From: a virus
Lineage: Duplodnaviria > Heunggongvirae > Uroviricota > Caudoviricetes
Strand: one strand, 5' to 3'
DNA length: 8,027 bases
Virus record (IMG/VR): IMGVR_UViG_2537562091_000006
The notes beneath the pieces were generated by a model. It was given only the letters and a program-made list of their open reading frames with translations. It searched no databases and had not been told where the DNA came from. Shown here piece by piece: positions 273 to 8,027 of the stretch. Every line of letters starts with the position of its first letter. The first letter of the stretch is position 1. The position numbers and the translations under genes are program-made.

Positions 273-491
273 TTACATCCACATAATTTGCTGCCCTGAC
301 GGCAACGGGTGCGGTCTAACGGCGTGGACTTCTCCCGGCTTCACGATGTATCGCTGTACCGACTCATAAGTGATGAACGTGGCGCTGCAATTCACGTTCT
401 GACACTGGTGATAACGCTCTTTTGTCGTGTCAGTGATATAGCGACTTGTACGCGCATGTGCGGCATGCTGGCATAAAGGACAATGAAACAT
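273..491 (-). CDS. ogr: Ogr late transcription activator, zinc-finger protein (72 aa)
   Basis: Translation MFHCPLCQHAAHARTSRYITDTTKERYHQCQNVNCSATF... has the Cys4 motif C-x2-C-x22-C-x4-C and the 72-aa length of P2 Ogr. Start chosen at the internal Met (codon 45 of the 116-aa track ORF) because GGAAGAGG lies about 8 nt upstream and the longer ORF would overlap D by 50 nt. Confidence 0.85.
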   Translation of the reverse strand: MFHCPLCQHAAHARTSRYITDTTKERYHQCQNVNCSATFITYESVQRYIVKPGEVHAVRPHPLPSGQQIMWM

Positions 492-573: not shown

Positions 574-1737
574 TCACTCATTATCTTCTGTTTCGTACTC
601 CACATCAGAAAGCCTGACCTCAAGCTCTAAGGACGTCGTGAAGCCGCTATTATTCAGAAAATGTGTCACCTTAGTGATTGTCCAGTTCTGCTCGTCTATG
701 ACGCGCTTAAAGCCTGACACTTTGACCGGCGTTTCCGTGTAAATATCTGCACGACCGGTAGCCAGGATGATGGAGAACTCCGCAACGCCCCGTTGCAGTT
801 TATCCCACTTCGCCTGAGCGGCGCGCATGGCCTGCGCTTTTGTGGCATATACCGTAGTCAGGGCAAAAACGTTGTCAGCTTCACCGGCCATGTATTCACC
901 TTCGCGCGCTTCAGGTACTTTTGGCGCTTTCTTCTGCGTGACTGGTTTTGCTTTCGGGTGCTCCAGTGCACGCAGGTGTTTTTCTTTCTTTTTGCGTTTC
1001 AGTTTTACCTTCTGCTTTTGTGGTTTCGGGTCTTTGGTGTGTAACCACTTTGCCGTTACGCCGGTATAGGCTCCACGGTCAGCAATCGCAAAATGATGAC
1101 GGTCGCCGTCGCTGCGGGTGATGGTAATCTGCGGGATTTTTTTACCGCTGGCCGTCACCCCCTGCCCCGCTTTGAGAAACAGCAGTTTTCCCATTTTTAC
1201 CGACACCTCGCCGCCGTTGCGTTCAGCAAGACGGGTCAGGAATTTCAAATCGGACTCCTGCGACTGGTCGATGTGCGGGATTTTAATTCCGGCCAGTGAC
1301 GGAGCGACACTGGCTTCCAGCTTATTACGGGAGGCTATCGCCTCAACAATCGCACCGAGCGTGGTGTCATGCCATGAGCCTTCACGGCGGGAATTGAGCG
1401 TCCCGCGAAAATCTGCACTCCGGGCGCGGATGGTGACCACATCCGGTGCGCCCCGGTGTTCAACCTCATCAACGGTAAATTTCCCTTTGCATACCAGGGC
1501 AAAACCTTTCCAGCCGATATACACCGTCAGGACAGCGCCACGAACCGGCAGCCCGACCTGCCCGTCGGCATCGTTCAGTTCAATATCAAGCTGGTCAGCC
1601 TCAAAGCCCCGGTTATCCGTCAGGGTCATGCTCATCAGACGGTCGCTGATATTGCCGGTAATATCCCTGCTGTCGAGCATCAGCATGTAATCCGGCGTCA
1701 GCGTACTGCCTGCATCAAATGTCAGCGCATCCAGCAT
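574..1737 (-). CDS. D: Tail protein D (phage late control D family, 387 aa)
   Basis: 387-aa ORF in the position and with the length of P2 gpD, between U and ogr. Start ATG overlaps the U stop (TAATG). Contains a Lys-rich low-complexity stretch at residues ~235-278. Confidence 0.85.
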   Translation of the reverse strand: MLDALTFDAGSTLTPDYMLMLDSRDITGNISDRLMSMTLTDNRGFEADQLDIELNDADGQVGLPVRGAVLTVYIGWKGFALVCKGKFTVDEVEHRGAPDVVTIRARSADFRGTLNSRREGSWHDTTLGAIVEAIASRNKLEASVAPSLAGIKIPHIDQSQESDLKFLTRLAERNGGEVSVKMGKLLFLKAGQGVTASGKKIPQITITRSDGDRHHFAIADRGAYTGVTAKWLHTKDPKPQKQKVKLKRKKKEKHLRALEHPKAKPVTQKKAPKVPEAREGEYMAGEADNVFALTTVYATKAQAMRAAQAKWDKLQRGVAEFSIILATGRADIYTETPVKVSGFKRVIDEQNWTITKVTHFLNNSGFTTSLELEVRLSDVEYETEDNE

Positions 1738-2216
1738 TATCCCGCCTCCGTCATACCCGTGAATCTGGTCGCCATACTGCCAGCCTTACCGATGAGCGAC
1801 TCCGCCTGTTTACCGATATCGCCATAAAGCGCGGCCAGTGATTCATCCACGCGGGTGAGCGACAGCGTAAAATCAATTTTCCGGGGTGTGCCGTCTGCAA
1901 AGAAAATACTCCCTGTTTCACTCACCCTGCTGATGACATACATGCCGTAAATCATGCCGGAGCCATCCAGCAACGGCCACGCCCGGCCTTCCTCTGCCAT
2001 CAGTCTGAGCGTGGTCATCGTCAGCTTGCCGCCGGTCAGTTCGGGATAAAGCACACCGGCAAGCGTGATGTTTTCCTCGCCAACACCGAGAAACTGAAAG
2101 GCATCCCGTTTACCGATACGGGAATTTGACGGCCAGCGATAATCTGATTCACGCTGCATGGTCTGGTGTGGCAGCGTCTGGCGCATAAAAACAAACATAC
2201 CTAACGCGAGCATCAT
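1737..2216 (-). CDS. U: Tail protein U (159 aa)
   Basis: 159-aa ORF matching P2 gpU in length and position. AAGGAGGTG Shine-Dalgarno sits just upstream of the start at 2216. Stop overlaps the D start. Confidence 0.85.
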   Translation of the reverse strand: MMLALGMFVFMRQTLPHQTMQRESDYRWPSNSRIGKRDAFQFLGVGEENITLAGVLYPELTGGKLTMTTLRLMAEEGRAWPLLDGSGMIYGMYVISRVSETGSIFFADGTPRKIDFTLSLTRVDESLAALYGDIGKQAESLIGKAGSMATRFTGMTEAG

Positions 2217-2230
2217 TTTTCGTCACCTCC

Positions 2231-4678
2231 TTAACCGTCATGCATCATGCTGGCACGGGCGCGCGCACGTTTATCCCGCTCGTATTTTTCGAGCGCATCC
2301 TGTAACTGGCGGTCAAGCTGTGTCCCCGGCGCAGTACCACCCGTCAGGCTGATGTGATATTCGTTTTTACTCTGGTCCACATAAGAGCGGCCAGCCGGTG
2401 CCGTGACCGGCTGATAAGCCTGATAGCCTGCATAAGAGCTGGTCGCCGGAATATAACCACCGGTGCCATACGTGGCGGCATGAGTTCTGGCGGCGGTCTG
2501 GTCAAGTGTGTCTGACTCTTTGTTGATGACCCCGAGCTTTTCCAGTACCCAGTCAATACCGCTGCGCAGTTTGTTGAACGCATTAAGCGGCAGCATCAGC
2601 GCGTCAGCCAGTGCCTGCCCGAACATGACGCCCGTGTCACGGCAACGGTTCAGGGTGTCCTGTGTGGCTTTGACCGGGGCAATCAGGTTTTTAAACCACT
2701 GCCACGCGGCCTGTAACTTTTCGCCCAGCCAGTCAAACACCGGTTTCAGTGGCGTGAACAGCTCCCCCACCGGCGCAAATGCCGCTTTCAGCCCTTCCAC
2801 CACACCGCCAAAGAATGCGCTGACAGGCTCCCAGTATTTACGGATAAGCAACGCCCCGGCGACAATGGCGGCCACCACGGCCACAACCGGCCAGCTAATC
2901 GCCCCGATGGCCGTCATAACAGCACTGCCAACCGTCATGAAGATTGCCCCCATTGCGCCTGCTGCCGCGATAATGGCATTAATGCCGGTGATAACCGGCC
3001 ATGCTACAAGACCAATGGCACCGATGATGCCAATAAGCGCCAGCGCGCCACCGACAATGAGGCCGATGGTTGACGCCAGTGATTTGTTTTTCTGGATCCA
3101 GCCGTCGAGTTTTAACACATACTTTGTGGCCGTCTGAGTGAGTTTACGCAGTGCGCCTTCCTGCTGGTCAAACAGGTCTGTCCCCACCGCCTCATAAGCG
3201 GACTGAAACTCCTTAAAGTCACCGCCGAGGTTGTCCTGCATGATATTTACCAGCTCGGCGGTCTTCCCGTCTGAGGCTTTAAACGCAGCGGTCAGTTTGT
3301 CCAGCTTTCCGGTTGAGGCGGCAGTCATCAGCACGGCGGCGGCTGAGCTGGCCTCCTCCCCGAAAATGGTTTTCATGTATTCAGCCTGCTGGGCAGTACC
3401 GAGCCGATTTTTCTCAAAACTGGCCTGCATTTCTTTCAGAATGGTAAATATTGGTCGGGTGTTTCCCTTGCTGTCTGAGGTTTTCACACCAAGCTCTTTC
3501 AGTGCATCCCATGCTTTTCCCGTCGGTGCCTGCAGGCGGCTTAACACGGCACGGCTTCCCGTCCCCGCCATTGAACCGGTAATTTTTGCATCATGCAGCG
3601 CCCCGACCATTGCGGCGGTTTCTTCAATGCTGACACCGGCATTTTTTGCCACAGGTGCGGCATAGGTCAGCGCATCGCTCATGCCGTCAAAATCGGCGGC
3701 GGTTTTGTTCATCGTCATGGAGAGAACATCCCCGATATGAGCGACCTTATCGTTTGAAAGCTGAAAGGCGGATTTCATCCCCATCAACAGGGCGGCGTTT
3801 TCTTCCATCGTGCGACGGTTCGCCAGCGCCATATTCAGCGTGACCGGCGTTGCCGCCTGAATGGCATCAACATCCCCACCGGCTTTCGCAATGATAATCT
3901 GCGCACCGGCTGCATCATCCGCCGAGGCGGCGGTGTTGTCGCCGAGCTGGCGCGCCTGTTTGCGTAATGCGGCCATTTCGGCGGAGTCTTTTGCCGCACC
4001 GAGCACAGCCTGCAATTCTGAGTTTTTCTGCGCAAACTCATAACCGGGCATCAGCAGCTTAACTCCGGCCATCGTTCCCGCAGCAGCTATCCCCACACCG
4101 GCAGCGCCCACTGAGGCCATATTTCCGGCCAGTTCCTTTCCGGCCTGATAACGCTGTTTTACTGCGTTAAGTTTTGCCTGTTGTGCACTGACACGCGCCA
4201 GTGCGTCACGCTGACGGTTAAGCTGTGCGGTGGTTTCACTGATACGGTTTTTCAGTCCCTGCTCATCATGTGCAAGATTGCGGGTATTAATTCCCACAGC
4301 GGCCAGTTCCCGCTGCTGGCGTTTAACGGAGTCCGTCAGGCGGTTATATTTCGCCTGTAAGTCCTCCGCCGCACGCTTTGCGGATTCCAGCACTTTCGCC
4401 TGAGCACGGGTCGGACGTTCGGTGTTTTTAAACTGTGTGGCAAGGGCTTCGGCCTCCTGCCGTGCCTTTTCAAGTGCATGACCAGTCACGGCGAGCTGTG
4501 CACTGGTCTTGCGAAATCCCTCAATACGGGATGCCTGACCGTTCAGCTCGCGCAGTGATTTTTGTGTTTCCCGGATATCCCCCGACAGCGATTTGCTCGC
4601 TGTGCGGATGGATTTAAACGGGCGGGATGCCTGGTCAACAGCCCTGAGCAATACCTGTAATTTTACATTGTTACTCAT
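2231..4678 (-). CDS. T: Tail tape measure protein T (815 aa)
   Basis: 815-aa ORF, the P2 gpT length. N-terminal ~190 residues are Q/R/A/E/L-rich (coiled-coil-like), followed by a long Gly/Ala/Ile-rich hydrophobic block (residues ~534-616). ATG at 4676-4678 overlaps the E+E' stop. Lies directly after the frameshifted chaperone pair, the typical tape-measure position. Confidence 0.9.
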   Translation of the reverse strand: MSNNVKLQVLLRAVDQASRPFKSIRTASKSLSGDIRETQKSLRELNGQASRIEGFRKTSAQLAVTGHALEKARQEAEALATQFKNTERPTRAQAKVLESAKRAAEDLQAKYNRLTDSVKRQQRELAAVGINTRNLAHDEQGLKNRISETTAQLNRQRDALARVSAQQAKLNAVKQRYQAGKELAGNMASVGAAGVGIAAAGTMAGVKLLMPGYEFAQKNSELQAVLGAAKDSAEMAALRKQARQLGDNTAASADDAAGAQIIIAKAGGDVDAIQAATPVTLNMALANRRTMEENAALLMGMKSAFQLSNDKVAHIGDVLSMTMNKTAADFDGMSDALTYAAPVAKNAGVSIEETAAMVGALHDAKITGSMAGTGSRAVLSRLQAPTGKAWDALKELGVKTSDSKGNTRPIFTILKEMQASFEKNRLGTAQQAEYMKTIFGEEASSAAAVLMTAASTGKLDKLTAAFKASDGKTAELVNIMQDNLGGDFKEFQSAYEAVGTDLFDQQEGALRKLTQTATKYVLKLDGWIQKNKSLASTIGLIVGGALALIGIIGAIGLVAWPVITGINAIIAAAGAMGAIFMTVGSAVMTAIGAISWPVVAVVAAIVAGALLIRKYWEPVSAFFGGVVEGLKAAFAPVGELFTPLKPVFDWLGEKLQAAWQWFKNLIAPVKATQDTLNRCRDTGVMFGQALADALMLPLNAFNKLRSGIDWVLEKLGVINKESDTLDQTAARTHAATYGTGGYIPATSSYAGYQAYQPVTAPAGRSYVDQSKNEYHISLTGGTAPGTQLDRQLQDALEKYERDKRARARASMMHDG

Positions 4679-5154: not shown

Positions 5155-5673
5155 TCACAGGCCGATATTGCGGCGGTGTTGCTCCAGCCGGTCGACGCCG
5201 TTCACCTTCTCAATCATGTTGATGGTGTCAATTTCGACCAGCTCCTTACCGTCCATCGTCAGCCGGAAATAGGTGCAGACCACGGAGATTTTCGACTCGG
5301 TGTCTTCTCCCTGTTTACCCTCGCCGGTGTCGATTTCTTTCTGACGTCCACGCATGACCACCTCGACGGCCACCGTTTCGCCGGTATCGTCACGCTGGTA
5401 AGAGCCTGCAAAACGAATCGGTACGGCATCCACACCGGTTGCGGCGTAAAGTTCCCAGATAACCGAATCCGGGAAGCCCCCGAGCGACCACTCCATTGAC
5501 AGCGCATCGTCATCAAGGCCGAGGTCTACCGGTGCGCTGCCGTTCATCCCCGCACCGCGATAGTTTTCGAGCTTACGGGTCAGTTTTGGCAGCGTGACGG
5601 ACTTTGCAACGCCCTGATAGCTGTAGCCGTTCAGAAAGACGTTCATTAACTTGAGTTTGCGCGGCATTGCCAT
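5155..5673 (-). CDS. FII: Tail tube protein FII (172 aa)
   Basis: 172-aa ORF directly downstream of the sheath gene, with the P2 gpFII length. AAGGAG Shine-Dalgarno precedes the ATG at 5673. Confidence 0.85.
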   Translation of the reverse strand: MAMPRKLKLMNVFLNGYSYQGVAKSVTLPKLTRKLENYRGAGMNGSAPVDLGLDDDALSMEWSLGGFPDSVIWELYAATGVDAVPIRFAGSYQRDDTGETVAVEVVMRGRQKEIDTGEGKQGEDTESKISVVCTYFRLTMDGKELVEIDTINMIEKVNGVDRLEQHRRNIGL

Positions 5674-5685
5674 CGGTCAGGCTCC

Positions 5686-6876
5686 TTAATTGCTGTTAAC
5701 CGAGGTGACCAGATTTGCCAGGTATTTATCGGTAATACGCTGGCGCAGGGTCAGGTTTTCAAGAGGAGGCACCGGTGTATAGTCGTAGTCGATATACAGT
5801 TTTCCGGCCTTGAGGGTTTCCGCATCGTTGGATTCTTCGCTGAACCAGCAGGTCGCATCCACGATATAGCCGTTTGTTTTCAGCTCACGGAATTTGGCAT
5901 TGATGCCGTCAACAATGTCGCGAATCAGCGTTGCGGTGATGGGCTTGTCCACCGCCCACATGTGCGCCTCAGCCATCGTGTCGGCCAGCACCTGCGCGGT
6001 GCGGGTGTAGTTTTCAAAGAGGAACAGCGGGTCATCAGAGCAGGTACGGTTACCCCAGAAGCGGAAACCGTCGCGGCGAATCAGCGTTGTGACGCCTGAC
6101 TCGTTAAGCAGGTCAGCATCGGTGCCGGACTCCTGCAAATCCCAGAATACAGATGCGCTGATACCGGTAGCACCGTTTACCCCGACGTTGGACAGCGTTT
6201 TATGCCAGCCCTGCTCCTGGTCGATTTTAGCGCGCAGACCCAGCGCACGGGCAGTGGCATACGCGGTGGCGGTGGTACTGGTGACCGTATCCCATGCGAG
6301 GAAATCCGGCCAGATGACCATCAGCTCACGCTGGCTGAAATTCTGGCGGTAGGCTTTCACCTCGGAAATGGTCTTACAGCCCCATGCGCTGATATATCCG
6401 AAAGCGCGCAGCTTCTGACAGACGGATGCCAGTGCAACAGCCACCTCTTTGGTATCCAGTCCCGGCACACCGAGAATACGCGGTTTAACACCGGTTACCG
6501 ACTCCGCCGCCAGCAGGGCTTTCAGTCCGGTGTACTGACCGTTTTCGTCGGTGGTGCCGATGATATTGGAAACGGTCTGCGCGAGTTTCGTTTCCTCGTC
6601 ATCACCGGTGCCGTCTTCCACGCGCACGACAACGGTGACCGGTTTTGACTGGTCAGCGATGGCCTGCAACGATGCCGCCAGCGTGCCTTTTTTACCGGCC
6701 TTTGCAATTGCGCTCTGCACATTGGTAATCAGCACAGGTTTATTGAGGGGGAAGGTTTCCGCATCCGCATCGCTGGCCGTGCAGACCATGCCGACAATGG
6801 CAGTGGATACGGTGGAAATGACGCGGGTGCCGTCGTTAATCTCCAGCACCTGCACGCCGTGATGATAGTCACTCAT
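5686..6876 (-). CDS. FI: Contractile tail sheath protein FI (396 aa)
   Basis: 396-aa ORF (P2 gpFI length) at the head of the FI-FII-E-T-U-D operon. GGAG lies about 10 nt upstream of the ATG. Confidence 0.85.
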   Translation of the reverse strand: MSDYHHGVQVLEINDGTRVISTVSTAIVGMVCTASDADAETFPLNKPVLITNVQSAIAKAGKKGTLAASLQAIADQSKPVTVVVRVEDGTGDDEETKLAQTVSNIIGTTDENGQYTGLKALLAAESVTGVKPRILGVPGLDTKEVAVALASVCQKLRAFGYISAWGCKTISEVKAYRQNFSQRELMVIWPDFLAWDTVTSTTATAYATARALGLRAKIDQEQGWHKTLSNVGVNGATGISASVFWDLQESGTDADLLNESGVTTLIRRDGFRFWGNRTCSDDPLFLFENYTRTAQVLADTMAEAHMWAVDKPITATLIRDIVDGINAKFRELKTNGYIVDATCWFSEESNDAETLKAGKLYIDYDYTPVPPLENLTLRQRITDKYLANLVTSVNSN

Positions 6877-6935
6877 CCGTTTAACTCCGTGGTTAATGGG
6901 TGAGTGATATTTTCAGTTGTGCCGGAGATGTCAGG

Positions 6936-7529
6936 CTATTTGTCCCGGTTGGCTAAGGGATGACACAATTTATTTTTTGTCACGGAGGCGGGGAATTTTT
7001 TATAGAGCGTGGACAGGCCAATATCAAAAATCAGTGCCACGCGTTGACGTGATTCCCCTGCAGCCAGCAAACGCCCGGCCTGCTCCCACTCACTCGCGGT
7101 GAGTTTCGGACGTCTGCCACCAATACGACCTTTGGCTCTGGCCGCTTCCAGTCCGGCGCGTGTCCGCTCGACAATGAGTTCTCGTTCCATTTCGGCCAGG
7201 GCACCCATCACATGAAAGAAAAAACGCCCCATCGGCGTGCTGGTATCAATAGCATCCGTCAGGCTGCGAAAATTAACGCCGCGTTCGCGCAGCTCCTCAA
7301 CCAGAATGACCAGATGCCGCATACTACGCCCCAGCCGGTCCAGCTTCCAGACTACCAGTGTATCCCCCTCCGATAATGTCCTGAGCAGTTTTTTCAGTCC
7401 CGGCCTGTCGGACTTCGTGCCGCTGATTTTGTCCTCAAAAATCAGCTCACATCCTGCGCACTCCAGCGCGTTACGCTGCAATTCCGTATTCTGGTCATTT
7501 GTTGACACGCGTACATAGCCAATAAGCAT
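6936..7529 (-). CDS. Serine DNA invertase, Hin/Gin/Cin/Pin family (site-specific recombinase, resolvase/invertase fold)
   Basis: N-terminus MLIGYVRVSTNDQNTELQRNAL carries the catalytic-Ser motif, followed by DTLVVWKLDRLGRS, MGRFFFHVMGALAEMERELIVERT and a C-terminal HTH (GLSTLYKKF); about 197 aa. Strong resemblance to Hin/Gin. Start taken at the second ATG (7529), which has GGGGG about 6 nt upstream; the track ORF starts 2 codons earlier at 7535. Confidence 0.85.
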   Translation of the reverse strand: MLIGYVRVSTNDQNTELQRNALECAGCELIFEDKISGTKSDRPGLKKLLRTLSEGDTLVVWKLDRLGRSMRHLVILVEELRERGVNFRSLTDAIDTSTPMGRFFFHVMGALAEMERELIVERTRAGLEAARAKGRIGGRRPKLTASEWEQAGRLLAAGESRQRVALIFDIGLSTLYKKFPASVTKNKLCHPLANRDK

Positions 7530-7556
7530 GAGCATCCCCCTGAATAAAAACCGGAG

Positions 7557-8027
7557 ATGATGCCAGTTGCCCGTTATCTCTGCATTTTCATAAACGTTGG
7601 TTTGGGAGAAGGTTCGGCATTACCCGTTGGCGTGCCTGTTCCGTGGCCTTCCGCCACTCCGCCAACAGGCTGGCTGAAATGCAACGGGGCGGCTTTTTCT
7701 GCTGAAGAATACCCGGAACTGGCAAAGGTTTACCCGACAAATAAATTGCCTGATTTACGCGGTGAGTTTATTAGGGGCTGGGATGACGGGCGTGGTATTG
7801 ATGCTGTACGTGCCTTGCTAAGTCTTCAGAATGGAGGAGTGGAATCACACACCCACCAAGGGCAGCTCTTCAGAGTTAGTGATTATCGTACAAAAGAATA
7901 CCAGCATCAGAAGTTATGGGGAAGAGGATATATTGCAAGCCTGACGCCGGGTGCTGATAGCCCACTTGATTTTGATGATTATTCTGTATCTTCTAATCCA
8001 AATGATATTTTGTCGGAATCAGAGTAA
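7557..8027 (+). CDS. Tail-fibre C-terminal variable segment (Sv'-like alternative exon of an invertible segment), probably silent in this orientation
   Basis: Translation contains LPVGVPVPWPSATPPTGWLKCNGAAFSAEEYPELAKVYP...PDLRGEFIRGWDDGRGIDAVRALLSLQNGGVESHTHQ, the conserved junction motif of Mu S / P1 S / lambda Stf-type tail-fibre C-terminal domains. The crossover site sits within its first codons, it has no convincing RBS, and it is on the strand opposite the late genes. The annotated ATG at 7557 is probably not a true start. Confidence 0.65.
   Translation: MMPVARYLCIFINVGLGEGSALPVGVPVPWPSATPPTGWLKCNGAAFSAEEYPELAKVYPTNKLPDLRGEFIRGWDDGRGIDAVRALLSLQNGGVESHTHQGQLFRVSDYRTKEYQHQKLWGRGYIASLTPGADSPLDFDDYSVSSNPNDILSESE
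7585..7610. other. 26-bp invertase crossover site (hix/gix/cix-like)
   Basis: TTTTCATAAACG TT GGTTTGGGAGAA: two imperfect inverted 12-bp half-sites (TTnTCnnAAAC) around a central TT/AA dinucleotide. Close to the gix/hix/cix sequences as I recall them. Lies 56 bp upstream of the invertase start and inside the 5' end of the tail-fibre segment ORF. Confidence 0.7.

Follow-up and report, generated by a model that had tools for sequence, protein, structure and literature searches.

A perfect dyad at the invertase-FI junction of a P2-like prophage appears to be an accidental palindrome beside a P2-type late promoter

In the prophage DNA considered here, only 59 bp separate the stop codon of a DNA invertase gene from the ATG of FI, the first gene of a late operon, which raises the question of where the FI promoter lies and which sequence its activator would bind. 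The original prediction, which gave this interval correctly, reasoned that the promoter must overlap the 3′ end of the invertase gene, and tentatively placed the activator site at a perfect inverted repeat within that gene. The stretch of DNA analysed, 8,027 nucleotides in all (IMGVR_UViG_2537562091_000006) and referred to below as the window, comes from a P2-like (Peduovirus) prophage; it is 95-97% identical to pro483, “P2” KC618326, S164 and canonical P2, and its identity to P2 is 97% between ogr and a point 80 bp upstream of FI. Read along the minus strand, its genes are, in order, invertase, FI, FII, E/E′, T, U, D, ogr, and those with coordinates relevant here are as follows.

6936-7535, minus strand: a 199-aa serine DNA invertase of the Gin/Hin/Cin/Pin type, with its TAG stop codon at 6936-6938
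5686-6876, minus strand: FI tail sheath, first gene of the late operon, ATG at 6876-6874
5155-5673, minus strand: FII
2231-4678, minus strand: T
1737-2216, minus strand: U
574-1737, minus strand: D
273-491, minus strand: ogr, gene for the cognate late activator (72 aa, CX2C-X22-CX4C zinc-finger motif)

The Ogr protein reads MFHCPLCQ...CQNVNC, and its gene is located 3′ of D, as in P2. The junction between invertase and FI is found in 581 of 5426 complete E. coli genomes.

The inverted repeat itself is as originally described. At 6961-6982 the plus strand reads TGACA CAATTTATTTTT TGTCA, a perfect 5-bp dyad (TGACA-N12-TGTCA) with an A/T-rich spacer of 12 bp. Its centre, at 6971.5, is 95.5 bp 5′ of the FI ATG, in agreement with the earlier estimate of about 95 bp. 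The statement that no exact TGT-N12-ACA occurs near FI also held, as the sole match in the window is on the plus strand at 140-157 (TGTGTAATCTCCCTTACA), with 1.9 such matches expected by chance. This match was set aside as irrelevant to FI; it lies 3′ of ogr, near the start of the P2 homology (att region).

A better guide to the FI promoter is found in P2. Trinucleotide half-sites are reportedly critical, according to Christie et al. in 2003, and deletion end-points of -69/-64 for P2 pF, reported by Grambow et al. in 1990, are said to show a need for this interval, which corresponds to window 6970-6965. Established background, quoted in PMC3931495, comprises four Ogr-dependent P2 late promoters and the consensus TGT-N12-ACA. 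The P2 record AF063097 annotates the F-operon transcription start at 17626-17628 and a 29-bp “activator binding site; activation of pF promoter” at 17555-17583. The choice of critical bases rests on this GenBank annotation and on the consensus as quoted in PMC3931495. The P2 annotations were moved to the window by alignment, with a coordinate offset of 1355, and yield the following arrangement around the dyad.

6961-6982, no strand: the dyad, apparently an incidental palindrome, with its proximal arm at 6961-6965 and its spacer plus distal arm at 6966-6982
6945-6973, minus strand: equivalent of the P2 29-bp activator binding site, from alignment and the P2 annotation
6967-6950, minus strand: putative core of the Ogr/late-activator site, TGTGTCATCCCTTAGCCA, from column-for-column alignment with P2 pF
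6933-6938, minus strand: putative weak -35, TAGCCT, placed by spacing, inside a conserved ACAAATAGCC block
6909-6914, minus strand: -10-like hexamer GAAAAT, kept as GA(A/C)AAT across relatives
6900-6902 (about 6901), minus strand: predicted start of FI-FII-E-T-U-D transcription, by homology to P2 17626-17628

The putative core consists, on the minus strand, of TGT (6967-6965), GTCATCCCTTAG and CCA (6952-6950), i.e., TGT-N12-CCA, and that of P2 pF is likewise TGT-N12-CCA (TGT GCTGTCGATTAG CCA). Relative to the start transferred from P2, the half-sites fall at about -66 to -64 and about -51 to -49, and the centre of the core (6958.5) at about -57.5. The core agrees with the consensus TGT-N12-ACA at five of six positions, and both of its half-sites are identical to those of the annotated P2 pF. 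A 3′ half-site of CCA in place of the textbook ACA counts against the assignment, but the annotated P2 pF has CCA as well, and the textbook form is missing near FI because P2 pF is itself TGT-N12-CCA. The transcribed strand has AAATTGTGTCATCCCTTAGCCAACCGGGACAAATAGCC in the window and GGTTGTGCTGTCGATTAGCCAACCGGGACAAATAGCC in P2. When the two are aligned (window AAATTGTGTCATCCCTTAGCCAACCGGGACAAATAG, P2 GGTTGTGCTGTCGATTAGCCAACCGGGACAAATAG), TTGTG and TTAGCCAAC... are common to both, while the spacer and all upstream sequence differ.

Sequences matching a sigma-70 consensus promoter were not found in 6700-7700, which is consistent with activator dependence. The ACAAATAGCC block, which contains the invertase stop codon, is probably a weak -35 region as judged from spacing, and the first three bases of the putative hexamer TAGCCT are the stop TAG itself (6936-6938). 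Just 3′ of the -10-like hexamer, at 6907, the window has T for the C of P2 (GAAAATATCAC vs GAAAATACCAC), a change in common with S164. Separately, a 13-nt, 85% inverted repeat (6869-6881 / 6895-6907) brackets the FI ribosome-binding site and ATG. It was rejected as a leader hairpin, since its left arm lies mostly 5′ of the predicted start and the leader fold (z = -0.2) is no better than that of shuffled sequences.

Taken together with the location of the late morphogenetic operon FI-FII-E/E′-T-U-D directly downstream of 6950-6967, the functional element at this junction is very probably a P2-type pF late promoter and not the dyad. Ogr, encoded at 273-491, would bind TGT-N12-CCA, a hyphenated dyad at 6967-6950 with its centre near -57.5, and would recruit RNA polymerase. 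The sigma-70 RNA polymerase would then initiate minus-strand transcription at about 6901, using the weak -10 GAAAAT (6914-6909) and a poor -35 that would lie in the conserved ACAAATAGCC block. Both Ogr binding and the transcription start in the window’s prophage are transferred from P2 by homology.

The closest known system is P2 pF, which is activated by Ogr, by P4 Delta or by 186 B. It has the same TGT-N12-CCA as the window, the same distance to the ATG and to the start (for the window, the predicted one), the same operon and the same position of ogr after D, and the two sequences are identical or near-identical from the FI ATG to -55. They differ in the 12-bp spacer (GCTGTCGATTAG in P2, GTCATCCCTTAG in the window), and are unrelated upstream of TTGTG. 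In P2, this upstream DNA comprises a non-coding GC hairpin with a T-run and the divergent fun(Z), whereas in the window the invertase ORF extends over the site with its 3′ end. The shared pO/pP site of P2 (AF063097 3057-3087) resembles that of the window in having TTGTGTCA and TGT-N12-CCA (...AGCCAxCCGGGAC), and is centred 55.5 bp from each of the annotated divergent starts. Unlike the window’s site, it serves two divergent promoters and has no coding overlap. A third arrangement is that of Fels-2 and SopEphi (Felsduovirus), which possess the same succession of tail-fibre invertible segment, invertase and FI, and an exact TGT-N12-ACA as far from the FI ATG as the window’s site is. In contrast to the window, their invertase ORF is closed by a stop at -105, about 11 nt short of the site, which leaves ORF and operator separate, and no similar dyad is present. 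By these comparisons, the window’s pF is a member of the already known P2 pF family, essentially the P2 promoter with a different spacer and a different upstream neighbour.

The activator site was also compared across wider sets. When the sequences upstream of FI were aligned for 11 phages of the genera Peduovirus, Eganvirus and Felsduovirus, TTGT and the xCA located 12 nt further on did not vary, and their distance from the ATG was constant, in all 11; exact TGT-N12-ACA occupies the same columns in SEN1, PsP3, Fels-2 and SopEphi. An unbiased set was then assembled of 80 loci from different species, picked by FI protein similarity alone, 79 of which had sufficient upstream DNA. In 59 of these 79, TGT-N12-[AC]CA begins at -92 to -87 from the ATG, vs a background of 0.011 per position elsewhere, and TTGT is found at -92 to -87 in 75. 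Among the 75 loci bearing TTGT, the 3′ half-site is CCA in 49, and the textbook TGT-N12-ACA is found in two. An extended consensus across the 79 species reads (G)TTGTnyCA...CCAAC. Separately, a prophage of Escherichia sp. MOD1-EC7003 with a 99% identical FI has the TTGTG half-site replaced (...GATGCGCTTACAGCCAACCGGGACAAATAG) about 60-95 nt 5′ of the ATG. This pF may fail to respond to the activator, or else the prophage may be defective; the FI start there lies only 140 nt from the contig end.

If the P2-type promoter is the functional element, what is the dyad? In terms of frequency, it is no greater than chance. The whole window contains 192 perfect 5-bp inverted repeats with spacers of 4-20 bp, or about 2.4 per 100 bp, eight of which have a spacer of exactly 12. 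For TGACA-N12-TGTCA with at most one mismatch, 0.22 occurrences are expected per window, and at least one match was obtained in 35 of 200 shuffles.

The anatomy of the dyad points to a composite origin. The proximal arm TGTCA (6965-6961) begins with the final T of the TGT half-site (T6965, common to arm and half-site) and continues with the four bases that open the activator-site spacer; it belongs to a recurrent extended half-site, TTGTnyCA (TTGTGTCA), also found in P2 pO/pP. The spacer and distal arm (6966-6982) correspond to the invertase tail codons V185-T-K-N-K-L190, the distal arm GTGACA being the Val-Thr codon pair. Only the 7 bp at 6961-6967, the promoter-proximal end of the dyad, are shared with the TGT-N12-CCA core. 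Homology at the DNA level tells the same story: that to invertase-less P2-like phages stops at window 6956-6968, that to other invertase genes (Mu gin, Fels-2, SfMu) stops at about 6987-6991, and the dyad spans the junction of about 18 bp between the P2-like block and the invertase block.

Conservation of the dyad is correspondingly poor. A promoter pattern containing TTGT and CCA but not the distal arm was used to collect 28 invertase-linked IMG/VR contigs, such that the following counts, from a pattern-selected set, are informative on the distal arm only.

CGACA...TGTCA, one arm mismatch: 20 of 28 loci
CGATA, CGGCA or ...TGCCA variants, two arm mismatches: 7 of 28 loci
TGACA...TGTCA, no arm mismatch: 1 of 28 loci

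In 27 of the 28 relatives, GCGACA, GCGATA or GCGGCA stands at the distal arm. GCGACA is also present in phages pro483 and KC618326, and among the aligned phages only S164 has the perfect form; the palindrome is perfect because of a single GCG (Ala) to GTG (Val) change in the window’s sublineage. In invertase-less relatives, 93 loci have three to five arm mismatches at the dyad position. No dyad is present in the aligned phages P2, fiAA91-ss, SEN1, PsP3 and Fels-2, all of which keep TGT-N12-(A/C)CA 13 bp downstream. Relatives in Scandinavium and Kluyvera have GACA...TGTC at a spacing of 10 instead of 12. Given the mismatched arms and the altered spacing, neither the sequence nor the geometry of the dyad is conserved. 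The dyad would then be a by-product of the invertase/promoter junction and not a functional element.

Three other readings of the dyad were weighed against this one. The first is that it is a site for some other dimeric host or phage protein, or an A/T-rich auxiliary element that modulates pF or the invertase in the window’s sublineage. The perfect palindrome, its A/T-rich centre and its location directly upstream of the activator site would suit such a role, as would the recurrence of the perfect form in phage S164 and one IMG/VR contig. However, this conservation is confined to near-identical relatives, palindromes of comparable quality occur at the density given above, and the variable spacing in Scandinavium and Kluyvera leaves no fixed geometry. 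Nor does the dyad, compared by eye, match the consensuses of CRP, LexA, FNR, Fis or IHF. On balance, a role of this kind is improbable.

The second reading, and the one that the original prediction favoured, is that the dyad is itself the Ogr operator, i.e., the upstream activator site of the FI late promoter. It lies upstream of FI, its 12-bp spacing is like that of TGT-N12-ACA, and it overlaps the equivalent of the annotated P2 binding site by 13 bp (6961-6973). Against this, its half-sites are ordered ACA-N12-TGT, the inverse of the TGT...ACA of an Ogr site, and its centre falls at about -70.5 relative to the predicted start near 6901, not at about -55 to -58 (annotated P2 sites are centred at -55.5 to -57.5). 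The distal arm is altered in all but one of the 28 invertase-linked relatives, and TGACA-N12-TGTCA occurs in none of the 79 species-level FI upstream regions, nor in the five dyad-less phages named above. Aligned with the P2 promoters, as had been envisaged, the region does match pF and pO/pP at TGT-N12-CCA, but P2 itself is without the dyad. Comparison has largely refuted the Ogr-operator reading on sequence grounds, and it is now most improbable.

The third, which is just as hard to credit, is that the dyad forms an RNA hairpin, serving as a terminator or stability element where the invertase mRNA ends: a 6-bp stem can be drawn (-4.2 kcal/mol, z = -2.1, with 8 of 200 shuffles folding equally well), but it is very weak, has a 12-nt loop with no U-run following, is disrupted in most relatives and coincides with no match in a terminator scan between the invertase stop and FI, and a terminator or hairpin role was rejected on the weak fold and missing U-tract.

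The dyad is therefore best described, from the alignments, as what appears to be an accidental palindrome beside a P2-type late promoter, and it is the overlap of that promoter with the invertase gene that warrants a closer look. Like Gin (Mu), Cin (P1), Pin (e14) and Hin, the invertase combines a Resolvase domain (PF00239, residues 5-137, E = 2e-52) with an HTH_7 domain (PF02796, residues 140-183, E = 6e-13), and adjoins an invertible tail-fibre segment. Its identity is 77% with Mu Gin and 85% with the Fels-2 invertase. Conservation extends to about residue 183 (window ~6987), after STLYKKFP(A), and gives way to a non-conserved tail of 16 residues (184-199, SVTKNKLCHPLANRDK, 6939-6986) that runs into promoter DNA. 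This tail lies outside the HTH_7 match and cannot be aligned to the tails of Gin or Fels-2; unlike the C-terminus of Gin, it is encoded by late-promoter DNA.

The claim that the promoter overlaps the invertase 3′ end is thus upheld in that the site at 6945-6973 lies in the ORF, but the overlap is limited to the non-conserved tail. Similarly, an operator does appear to be overlaid on invertase coding sequence, with TGT-N12-CCA (6950-6967) within codons L190-N196, but that operator is not the dyad. The last 10 codons (LCHPLANRDK) are DNA that in P2 is non-coding promoter. Other genera read the same promoter DNA in a different frame, as can be seen from the tails and from the distance of the stop codon to the FI ATG.

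Window, S164 and pro483: tail ...LCHPLANRDK (pro483: LCHPLTNRDK), stop at -62
Pseudocitrobacter: tail VVSSVTKRA, stop at -64
Siccibacter: tail VVPSLSQP, stop at -67
Scandinavium: tail VVSVIAEP, stop at -67
Kluyvera: tail VVSDTAEP, stop at -67
Fels-2 and SopEphi: stop precedes the activator site, at -105

Since the tail is not conserved and its frame varies, the coding/promoter overlap is read as an incidental run-on of the ORF and not as a dual-coded element. In the lineage of the window’s prophage, the invertible tail-fibre cassette and its invertase gene sit directly upstream of the activator site, and the invertase ORF runs beyond residue 183 through the promoter to the first in-frame stop, TAG at 6938-6936.

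At the other end of the invertase gene, a 26-mer on the plus strand at 7587-7612 (TTCATAAACGTTGGTTTGGGAGAAGG) lies within the 5′ part of a plus-strand ORF (7557-8027) with a Phage Tail Collar domain. We take it to resemble a Gin/Cin/Pin-type crossover site, of the kind of gix, cix and pix. It is probably the boundary of the invertible tail-fibre segment by the invertase 5′ end, with its partner site outside the window.

The two architectures also differ in how pF is insulated. Invertase-less P2-like phages carry a GC-rich hairpin and T-run (e.g., GGCGGGCGAATTGCCCGCCTTTTCTTT) directly 5′ of the TTGT half-site, at the equivalent of about 6969-7010, which is where the invertase tail sits in invertase-linked phages, and the latter are without a terminator. 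With the Ogr site inside the invertase ORF and no terminator before FI, the transcription units of invertase and FI could be coupled, either by read-through or by a block from Ogr and polymerase, although we regard such coupling as unlikely. If it did occur by the first route, invertase transcripts would read into the tail operon and provide Ogr-independent basal expression. By the second, Ogr and RNA polymerase at pF would halt invertase transcripts late in infection, and this block would freeze tail-fibre orientation during virion assembly.

With the FI late promoter now placed for a common type of E. coli prophage, the result matters little beyond correct annotation. It does indicate that the invertible tail-fibre cassette has its module boundary right at the upstream edge of the Ogr site, and that the promoter-encoded, frame-variable tail of the invertase is an example of incidental overlap, not of dual constraint. 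For the wider family, the pF-type activator site is normally TGT-N12-CCA, not the textbook TGT-N12-ACA.
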